Shown in pieces: positions 14,476-14,640 of a stretch of DNA of 14,640 bases. The notes beneath the pieces were generated by a model. The model saw only the letters and a list, made by a program, of their open reading frames with translations. It did not search any database and was not told the origin of the DNA. This DNA comes from a virus. Taxonomy: Duplodnaviria > Heunggongvirae > Uroviricota > Caudoviricetes. How positions within the stretch are numbered: the first letter of the stretch is position 1; each line of letters starts with the position of its first letter. A program made the position numbers and the translations under genes. The stretch lies in IMG/VR virus record IMGVR_UViG_2630968342_000015. The stretch is one strand, 5' to 3'.

Positions 14476-14640
14476 TCAACGTGTTATGTGAAATAAGTTA
14501 TATATAACAGCAATAAATAATGCGAGAATAAACGGCACGATGATCTCGGCGGCAAAACGGATACCGCAGAGAATAATGACCAGCATTCCCAACATAATGA
14601 CGATTTTTAGGCCATTGAGCGTGATGATCGGCTTTGCCAT
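14476..14640 (-). pseudogene. tqsA: 5' fragment of a tqsA-like (AI-2 exporter family) membrane protein gene, apparently truncated by the island
   Basis: Minus-strand translation [46 protein letters not shown] then [13 protein letters not shown]. The first ~46 residues match E. coli TqsA/YdgG as recalled from memory (unverified); divergence begins at about 14502. Confidence 0.45.

Follow-up and report, generated by a model that had tools for sequence, protein, structure and literature searches.

The window analysed here is the whole stretch of 14,640 nucleotides, and it ends, on the minus strand, with an open reading frame of only 54 codons. The locus therefore raises the question of whether this frame is a gene in its own right or what remains of a host gene split by an integrated element, and, in the second case, which element did it and what happened to the gene product. 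We consider it highly probable (about 93%) that the window represents almost all of a 14.7-kb capsid-forming PICI (cf-PICI) of E. coli G1/2, which is integrated in tqsA via a 9-bp core and splits that gene.

A fragment of tqsA at the right end of the window

The two overlapping features at this end are:

14476-14640, minus strand: chimeric junction ORF of 54 codons (translation compared with TqsA; partial pseudogene in PGAP)
14504-14640, minus strand: 5' fragment of tqsA, 137 nt, with its native start codon kept (island-free genomes align exactly here)

An earlier sequence-only reading of this DNA had described a minus-strand frame that starts at 14640 and stops after 54 codons, and had assigned its first ~46 residues to E. 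coli TqsA/YdgG, a protein normally longer than 300 residues. Both the ORF list and the translation contain the frame as described, and the assignment was right: residues 1-46 are all identical to TqsA of BL21(DE3), where the intact gene has 1035 nt and encodes 344 amino acids. From residue 47 the sequences diverge, TqsA going on with LNPLVQHM and the junction ORF with a tail of 8 element-encoded residues followed by a stop. The label given by PGAP is partial pseudogene, 'pheromone autoinducer 2 transporter, missing C-terminus', and a Pfam scan of the 54-codon ORF returned no match.

Window positions 14300-14640 were compared by megablast with 5,426 complete E. coli genomes, 5,423 of which matched. 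Nearly all of them align over 14504-14640 alone, where the annotated feature is 'tqsA: AI-2 transporter TqsA', and the identity to tqsA is 99-100% in more than 5,000 genomes, so that a chance resemblance of these 137 nt to tqsA is ruled out. The point at which tqsA gives way to the element is 14503/14504, inside the interval of about 14495-14505 in which the right junction had been placed, and the native promoter region of tqsA lies past the window end.

One could still suppose that the 54-codon ORF encodes a small membrane protein in its own right, since it has a start codon and a hydrophobic sequence, or that the split is a non-specific rearrangement or an assembly artefact. However, about 5,170 complete genomes carry an uninterrupted 1035-nt tqsA at this place, and the idea of a conserved 54-aa protein in island-free genomes is refuted by the 344-aa gene that is found there instead. 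An artefact is also hard to reconcile with the identical junction in 246 independent complete assemblies. Site-specific recombination is indicated by features described below, namely the 9-bp repeat, the repeated motifs of the arms, the neighbouring integrase and the attP contigs. We attach practically no probability to either supposition and retain the reading of a gene split by integration.

The 3' part of tqsA and the attachment sites

The window is 100% identical to positions 2491600-2506239 of NZ_CP060083.1, the genome of E. coli G1/2, which was isolated from human faeces; two sister strains carry the same sequence without a difference. The G1/2 locus with its flanks (L003, 22.6 kb; window position x corresponds to L003 x + 4000) reads pntA, pntB, tqsA 3' pseudogene, a 60-aa 'hypothetical protein', integrase and so on to TerL, a 93-aa protein, tqsA 5' pseudogene, ydgV, mdtJ and mdtI; the order in BL21 is pntB, tqsA, ydgV and mdtJI, with nothing between. 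The 3' part of tqsA, which the sequence-only reading had suggested searching for upstream of position 1, was located there: it comprises 906 nt (codons 44-344), adjoins the integrase gene and lies about 190 bp to the left of window position 1. Fragment lengths add up to the intact gene (137 + 906 - 8 = 1035 nt), and PGAP annotates both pieces in G1/2 as partial pseudogenes, the 3' one as 'missing N-terminus'.

That the integrase uses a protein-coding gene rather than a tRNA had also been proposed, the alternative being an upstream tRNA with a repeat matching the right arm. ARAGORN found no tRNA or tmRNA gene in the 22.6-kb locus, which covers 4 kb on each side; a tRNA target is thus excluded and the proposal holds, with tqsA as the target. 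No known RNA family was detected in the window at gathering score. A short direct repeat had been predicted for the left junction, and comparison of attL, attR and attB gave a direct repeat of 9 bp, ATAACAGCA on the plus strand, which bounds the 14.7-kb element. The sites and arms are as follows:

14504-14512: attR copy of the core ATAACAGCA (attL/attR/attB comparison)
L003 3805-3813, 187-195 bp to the left of position 1 and outside the window: attL copy of the core ATAACAGCA (same comparison)
14408-14429, plus strand: two tandem copies of GGTGTAGTCA in the right arm, candidate arm-type integrase-binding sites (exact repeats near att)
L003 3942-3963, plus strand, just outside the window: two more copies of GGTGTAGTCA in the left arm, in the same orientation (exact repeats near att)
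13739-14503: non-coding right arm, from the last gene to the att core (no annotated gene; conserved in parts)

Read in the sense of tqsA, the core is TGCTGTTAT and takes in the third base of codon 43, codons 44 and 45, and the first two bases of codon 46. In the same sense attB is ...ttatttatTGCTGTTATtcttaaccc..., attR, in the window, is ...ttatttatTGCTGTTATatataactta... and attL, to the left of the window, is ...tgataaaaTGCTGTTATtcttaaccc...; outside the core, the sequence changes from tqsA to element exactly at the core edges. Counted with one copy of the core the element measures 14,699 bp, of which a left arm of ~187 bp and attL lie outside the window. In the reading that we favour, the integrase recombined attP of the element with attB inside tqsA, the two sharing the core TGCTGTTAT, and this event split the gene, leaving the 5' piece as the 54-codon stub at the right junction and the 3' 301 codons at the left one.

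The four exact copies of GGTGTAGTCA form two tandem pairs, 75-96 bp inside attR and 130-158 bp inside attL, and when one mismatch was allowed 6 copies were found against 0.64 expected by chance. From their position and repetition, these repeats are probably the arm-type sites of the arm-binding integrase. The right arm is conserved over 14148-14485 in Sakai Sp7 and over 14210-14503 in EcCI042 (both discussed below), and in the excised attP contigs the same arm continues up to the core. About 400 bp of it (window 13739-14148) are absent from both Sakai Sp7 and EcCI042, which share the sequences on either side; this part may be either an accessory slot with variable content or DNA without coding function. 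The right arm also contains two ORFs that lack annotation, one on the minus strand (13896-14156, 86 aa) and one on the plus strand (14026-14256, 76 aa), and neither had a match in a PHROG search.

A perfect 12-bp palindrome, GTTATATATAAC, lies across the boundary between right arm and core (14497-14508) and is present in attR and attP; its counterpart in attB is the imperfect GTTAAGAATAAC. We considered it as a pair of core-type binding sites and set it aside, as it is off-centre relative to the 9-bp identity block.

The left arm is spanned by the 60-aa 'hypothetical protein' of PGAP (WP_001332680.1; L003 3819-4001, minus strand), the last base of which is window position 1. Its ORF overlaps the integrase start and two arm repeats, is in frame with the 3' fragment of tqsA and stops at TGA TAA two codons ahead of the core; Pfam gave no match for this protein, which is most likely a junction or arm artefact and not a gene. 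For annotation purposes, the 54-codon ORF and the 60-aa protein at the other junction should be regarded as by-products of the junctions rather than as genes.

Gene content and class of the element

Criteria for cf-PICIs were taken from 10.1101/2025.02.11.637232. The main features of the element, all on the plus strand, are:

1-1218, plus strand: tyrosine integrase with arm-binding domain (Pfam Arm-DNA-bind_3, Phage_integrase)
1593-1781, plus strand: AlpA-family regulator (Pfam PF05930, E = 1.9e-17)
3406-5238, plus strand: D5/P4-type primase-helicase, replication module (Pfam D5_N, DUF5906, Pox_D5; NCBIfam primase_Cterm)
5768-6178, plus strand: SSB (Pfam, PGAP)
6189-6461, plus strand: PerC-family regulator (Pfam, E = 3e-45)
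7058-13443, plus strand: capsid/packaging module (Pfam, PGAP)

According to PGAP the integrase starts with a GTG located 12 nt to the left of the window. Its two domains were recognized with good scores (PF13356, 1.4e-18; PF00589, 2.9e-16), and the motifs ARTVE, HDIRRT, GHQ and VYNHSRY, read by eye in the translation, match the pattern R...HxxR...H...Y, so that the enzyme is placed with the integrases of the P4/lambda type. An Icd-like protein and a DUF4222 protein are also encoded, between AlpA and the primase in the gene list. All eight components of the cf-PICI packaging module were detected by Pfam and PGAP at 7058-13443, namely the HK97 major capsid protein, prohead protease, portal, head-closure protein, gp6-like connector, HNH, TerS (P27 family) and TerL. 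Among the 26 genes annotated between the att sites there is no tail or lysis gene, and a PHROG search of the remaining small ORFs matched only PHROGs of unknown function.

With respect to size and gene order, for which the criteria are about 10-18 kb and a terminal integrase gene with the regulation and replication modules after it, the element has 14,699 bp and the order int, alpA, Icd-like gene, primase and SSB. It directly abuts the two tqsA halves on both sides, and these flanks exclude that the packaging genes are part of a larger prophage with tail and lysis genes next to them. Because of the gene set running from integrase to TerL, the absence of tail and lysis genes among those annotated and the direct contact with the tqsA halves, the element is classified, as far as features testable in sequence define the class, as a cf-PICI; all such features were found. 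The class is further characterized by helper-phage induction via AlpA and by packaging into small capsids to which helper tails are joined; of these traits, the sequence shows the AlpA homologue. The element is a new instance of this class and very close to Sakai Sp7.

Some further observations concern individual genes. An ORF of 247 aa (1839-2582) straight after alpA belongs to no Pfam or PHROG family, and an ORF of the same length occupies the same position in Sp7 (ECs_1576). At 6430-6545, overlapping the end of perC, PGAP places a frameshifted 'trigger factor' pseudogene of 116 nt that looks like an annotation oddity. Fillol-Salom et al. (2018, PMC6092414) include perC itself, in their Table S1, among the accessory genes carried by E. 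coli PICIs.

Consequence for TqsA

The break falls at position 32 of the 327 of the Pfam AI-2E_transport profile, the same break position in the tqsA domain as that recorded by Mageeney et al. (2020, PMC7192596). In the cryo-EM structure of TqsA (PDB 7nb6; PMC9475539) helix H1 comprises Thr7-Phe29 and H2 Ala31-Trp57, and H1 of the five protomers makes the major cytoplasmic contact of the pentamer. The cut is therefore in the middle of H2, and the 3' piece is without H1 and half of H2. This piece has 301 codons, begins at codon 44 and has no start codon. Upstream of it the element reads ...ACT AAA TGA TAA AAT GCT GTT ATT..., with two in-frame stops two codons before the core; the only nearby ATG ahead of it lies in another frame, which ends after 25 codons, and we found no sigma-70-like promoter reading out of the left arm.

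It is conceivable that the 3' fragment is nevertheless functional, expressed from a promoter of the element and an internal start codon, so that integration would remodel TqsA rather than abolish it. The fragment is an uninterrupted ORF of 301 codons that scores 248 bits against AI-2E_transport, and in-frame GTG and ATG codons are present at codons 51 and 54 of tqsA, even if the product would lack H1. Rescue driven by the element was rejected on the evidence just given, that is, the two in-frame stops, the out-of-frame ATG and the left arm devoid of promoter-like sites; moreover, the fragment lacks the helical segments on which the pentamer contact depends (H1 and half of H2), and in the restoration test reported by Mageeney et al. 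(2020, PMC7192596) the tqsA site was scored as unrestored. We judge a functional 3' fragment to be very unlikely.

Loss of the exporter is the reading that we prefer. Since the stub is without nearly all of the protein and the 3' piece is without H1 and half of H2, we infer that neither fragment makes a working exporter and that carriers are tqsA-negative as long as the island is integrated. Strains with the island should accordingly be treated as probable mutants of tqsA, the AI-2 exporter.

Interruptions of tqsA were also observed outside these islands. Strain SCZE5 has an IS1-family transposase inside the gene, and in MB20 and CFSAN004176 tqsA matches only partially. Such interruptions elsewhere in the gene suggest that tqsA is dispensable in E. 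coli.

Excision and the possibility of a reversible switch

Precise excision would give back an intact tqsA; for a PICI, excision would follow induction by a helper phage via AlpA. When the two halves in G1/2 are rejoined, a 1035-nt ORF results; it differs from BL21 tqsA by 10 synonymous changes, and the encoded protein is 100% identical. In PCN033 and 042, too, rejoining restores an uninterrupted ORF, and its product carries a single substitution (I333S and L108I, respectively). The scarless product expected across attB would be ...TTATTGCTGTTATTCTTAAC....

From attL and attR the attP junction was predicted as ...AGTTATATATAACAGCATTTTATCA..., and an exact match was found in two contigs, one each in the scans of viral and metagenome sequences. 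The first, IMG/VR UViG 3300045988_152974 (L008), has 11,098 bp and ends that repeat over 119 bp, as in circular assemblies; the second, CYGL01000683.1, has 11,271 bp and carries the junction in mid-contig. Both are EcCI042-like classical islands with circularly permuted gene order. Because the attP junction is found exactly in these two contigs, the int-att module excises precisely at the 9-bp core. No excised form of the cf-PICI was found in the viral and metagenome scans, both attP contigs being of the classical EcCI042 type; precise excision of the cf-PICI version would be expected from the 99% identity of the integrases and the matching arms. The L008 contig ends exactly on the att core ATAACAGCA, and one may speculate that this end is due to branching of the assembly graph, with integrated and excised forms coexisting in the sample.

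These data lead to the question of whether the island could be a case of regulated gene integrity (RGI), that is, a reversible switch in which excision induced by helper phage or SOS restores tqsA and links phage induction to AI-2 export and biofilm. The idea is not new, as it was raised bioinformatically by Mageeney et al. (2020, PMC7192596), where tqsA is among 19 new RGI candidates, with E. coli islands of 11, 15 and 16 kb. As to the criterion of a coding sequence disrupted and unrestored by the element, the locus shows the cut at profile position 32, the in-frame stops at attL and the foreign tail of 8 codons at attR. In favour of a switch it can also be said that both tqsA halves are undecayed in three divergent hosts, that the identical core implies scarless excision, that excised forms exist and that different islands have integrated at this site time and again. 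A switch would presuppose excision without loss of the island and its later re-integration. Intact halves, however, are equally expected for recent insertions, and an induced PICI is expected to be packaged while its host is lysed by the helper, so that the restored gene would seldom benefit that cell; the IS insertions in tqsA suggest instead that the gene is simply dispensable. In our opinion a switch is rather unlikely. If it were true, AI-2 export would come back for a time in part of the population upon excision, so that the activity of phage and satellite would be coupled to the release of a quorum-sensing signal and to biofilm; conditional tqsA mutants would then make up about 4.5% of E. 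coli, EAEC 042 and strains labelled O26 or O111:H11 among them. The reading that we maintain is that of a satellite whose integration splits tqsA.

Distribution among E. coli genomes

The same attR junction was found in 246 of the 5426 complete E. coli genomes (4.5%). More generally, tqsA lies in two separate places in 254 genomes, and 246 of these 254 share the PICI-type right arm. In 178 genomes TerL, right arm and tqsA stub form one continuous stretch, which indicates a cf-PICI at tqsA, and at least 80% of the G1/2 island is present in 70. Carriers comprise EAEC 042, the porcine strain PCN033, strains labelled O26 or O111:H11 and human commensals. The gene is intact in about 95% of genomes, and the cf-PICI and the classical islands sit in hosts with different tqsA alleles; these differences in alleles, together with those among the elements, argue for several independent integrations at tqsA.

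Comparison with known systems

The tqsA site has already been described. In Table S1 of Fillol-Salom et al. (2018, PMC6092414) the islands EcCI042 and EcCIK1516 are listed with the att core ATAACAGCA and with tqsA as att gene, and EcCI042 is placed in E. coli 042 at FN554766.1 1832521-1843554 (11 kb). The att site ATAACAGCA in tqsA as determined here is thus correct and not new, having been published in 2018. At the 042 locus tqsA is split in the same way, in the same orientation and at the same 9-bp core ATAACAGCA. The integrases are identical at 406 of 409 residues (99.3%), and the int-alpA region (about 97% nucleotide identity), the PerC/SSB region and the right arm are common to both islands. 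The cargo differs: EcCI042 is a classical PICI of about 11 kb with a RepA-type helicase and no annotated portal, protease, HNH, TerS or TerL, whereas the element studied here has 14.7 kb and a full head and packaging module, and only 34% of the window aligns with the EcCI042 locus. Judging from these identities, the integrase belongs to the same specificity clade as that of EcCI042, compared with 91% identity to the integrase of the phoQ site. One integrase-att module thus serves two satellite architectures, the classical PICI and the cf-PICI. For cf-PICIs in general, Alqurainy et al. (2023) report that six attB sites are used in E. coli and that classical PICIs also use four of these.

The closest counterpart in cargo is 'prophage Sp7; untypable' of E. 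coli O157:H7 Sakai. The gene order from int to TerL is the same, and 81% of the window aligns at 71-98% identity, with 97.6% nucleotide identity over window 5586-13750 (8.2 kb), the block that holds the packaging module, and 94% over the int-proximal positions 4-2801. A regulator of PerC/PchE type is present in both, the Sakai copy being annotated as pchE. We take Sp7 to correspond to EcCIEDL933, the cf-PICI prototype from Alqurainy et al. (2023). The location is different, as Sp7 sits between roxA (ycfD) and phoQ (L007 1228-16688), where no annotated gene is disrupted.

The roxA-phoQ site was read in Shigella flexneri (L004 2790-3000) and in E. coli strain 120 (L005 1600-1720), rather than in Sp7 itself. 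A sister integrase with about 91% amino acid identity is found there, with the core GGACATATTT and with arm repeats that are mostly the variant GGTGTAGTTA and not GGTGTAGTCA. The core GGACATATTT is the published site of EcCICFT073. Between the roxA-phoQ and the tqsA elements the arms beside the core are conserved and the core block is swapped, and the first 58 residues, which lie in the arm-binding domain, hold 18 of the 37 differences between the two integrases. The pair of sister integrases shows in compact form how att specificity has changed in nature, 91% identity and a swapped core going with a harmless intergenic site.

Among deposited phage genomes no close relative was found, the best match having 77% identity over 22% of the query. 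LR881103.1 ('Escherichia phage vB_KppS-Ant', 16.5 kb, recorded as an induced prophage) has primase, capsid and portal at 77% identity and may, to judge by its size and gene content, be a cf-PICI that entered the databases as a phage. A scan of genome contigs with the integrase, for targeting of tqsA beyond E. coli, gave one locus, in Shigella flexneri, located at the phoQ-roxA site and not at tqsA.

Finally, the locus can be compared with known RGI elements from the catalogue of Mageeney et al. (2020, PMC7192596), such as the Listeria comK prophage, the Bacillus skin element in sigK and the E. coli mlrA prophage. They have in common with the tqsA island a site-specific integrase that hits the interior of a coding sequence which the element does not restore; they differ in that, for the tqsA island, the likeness extends as far as the static arrangement and the occurrence of excised forms.
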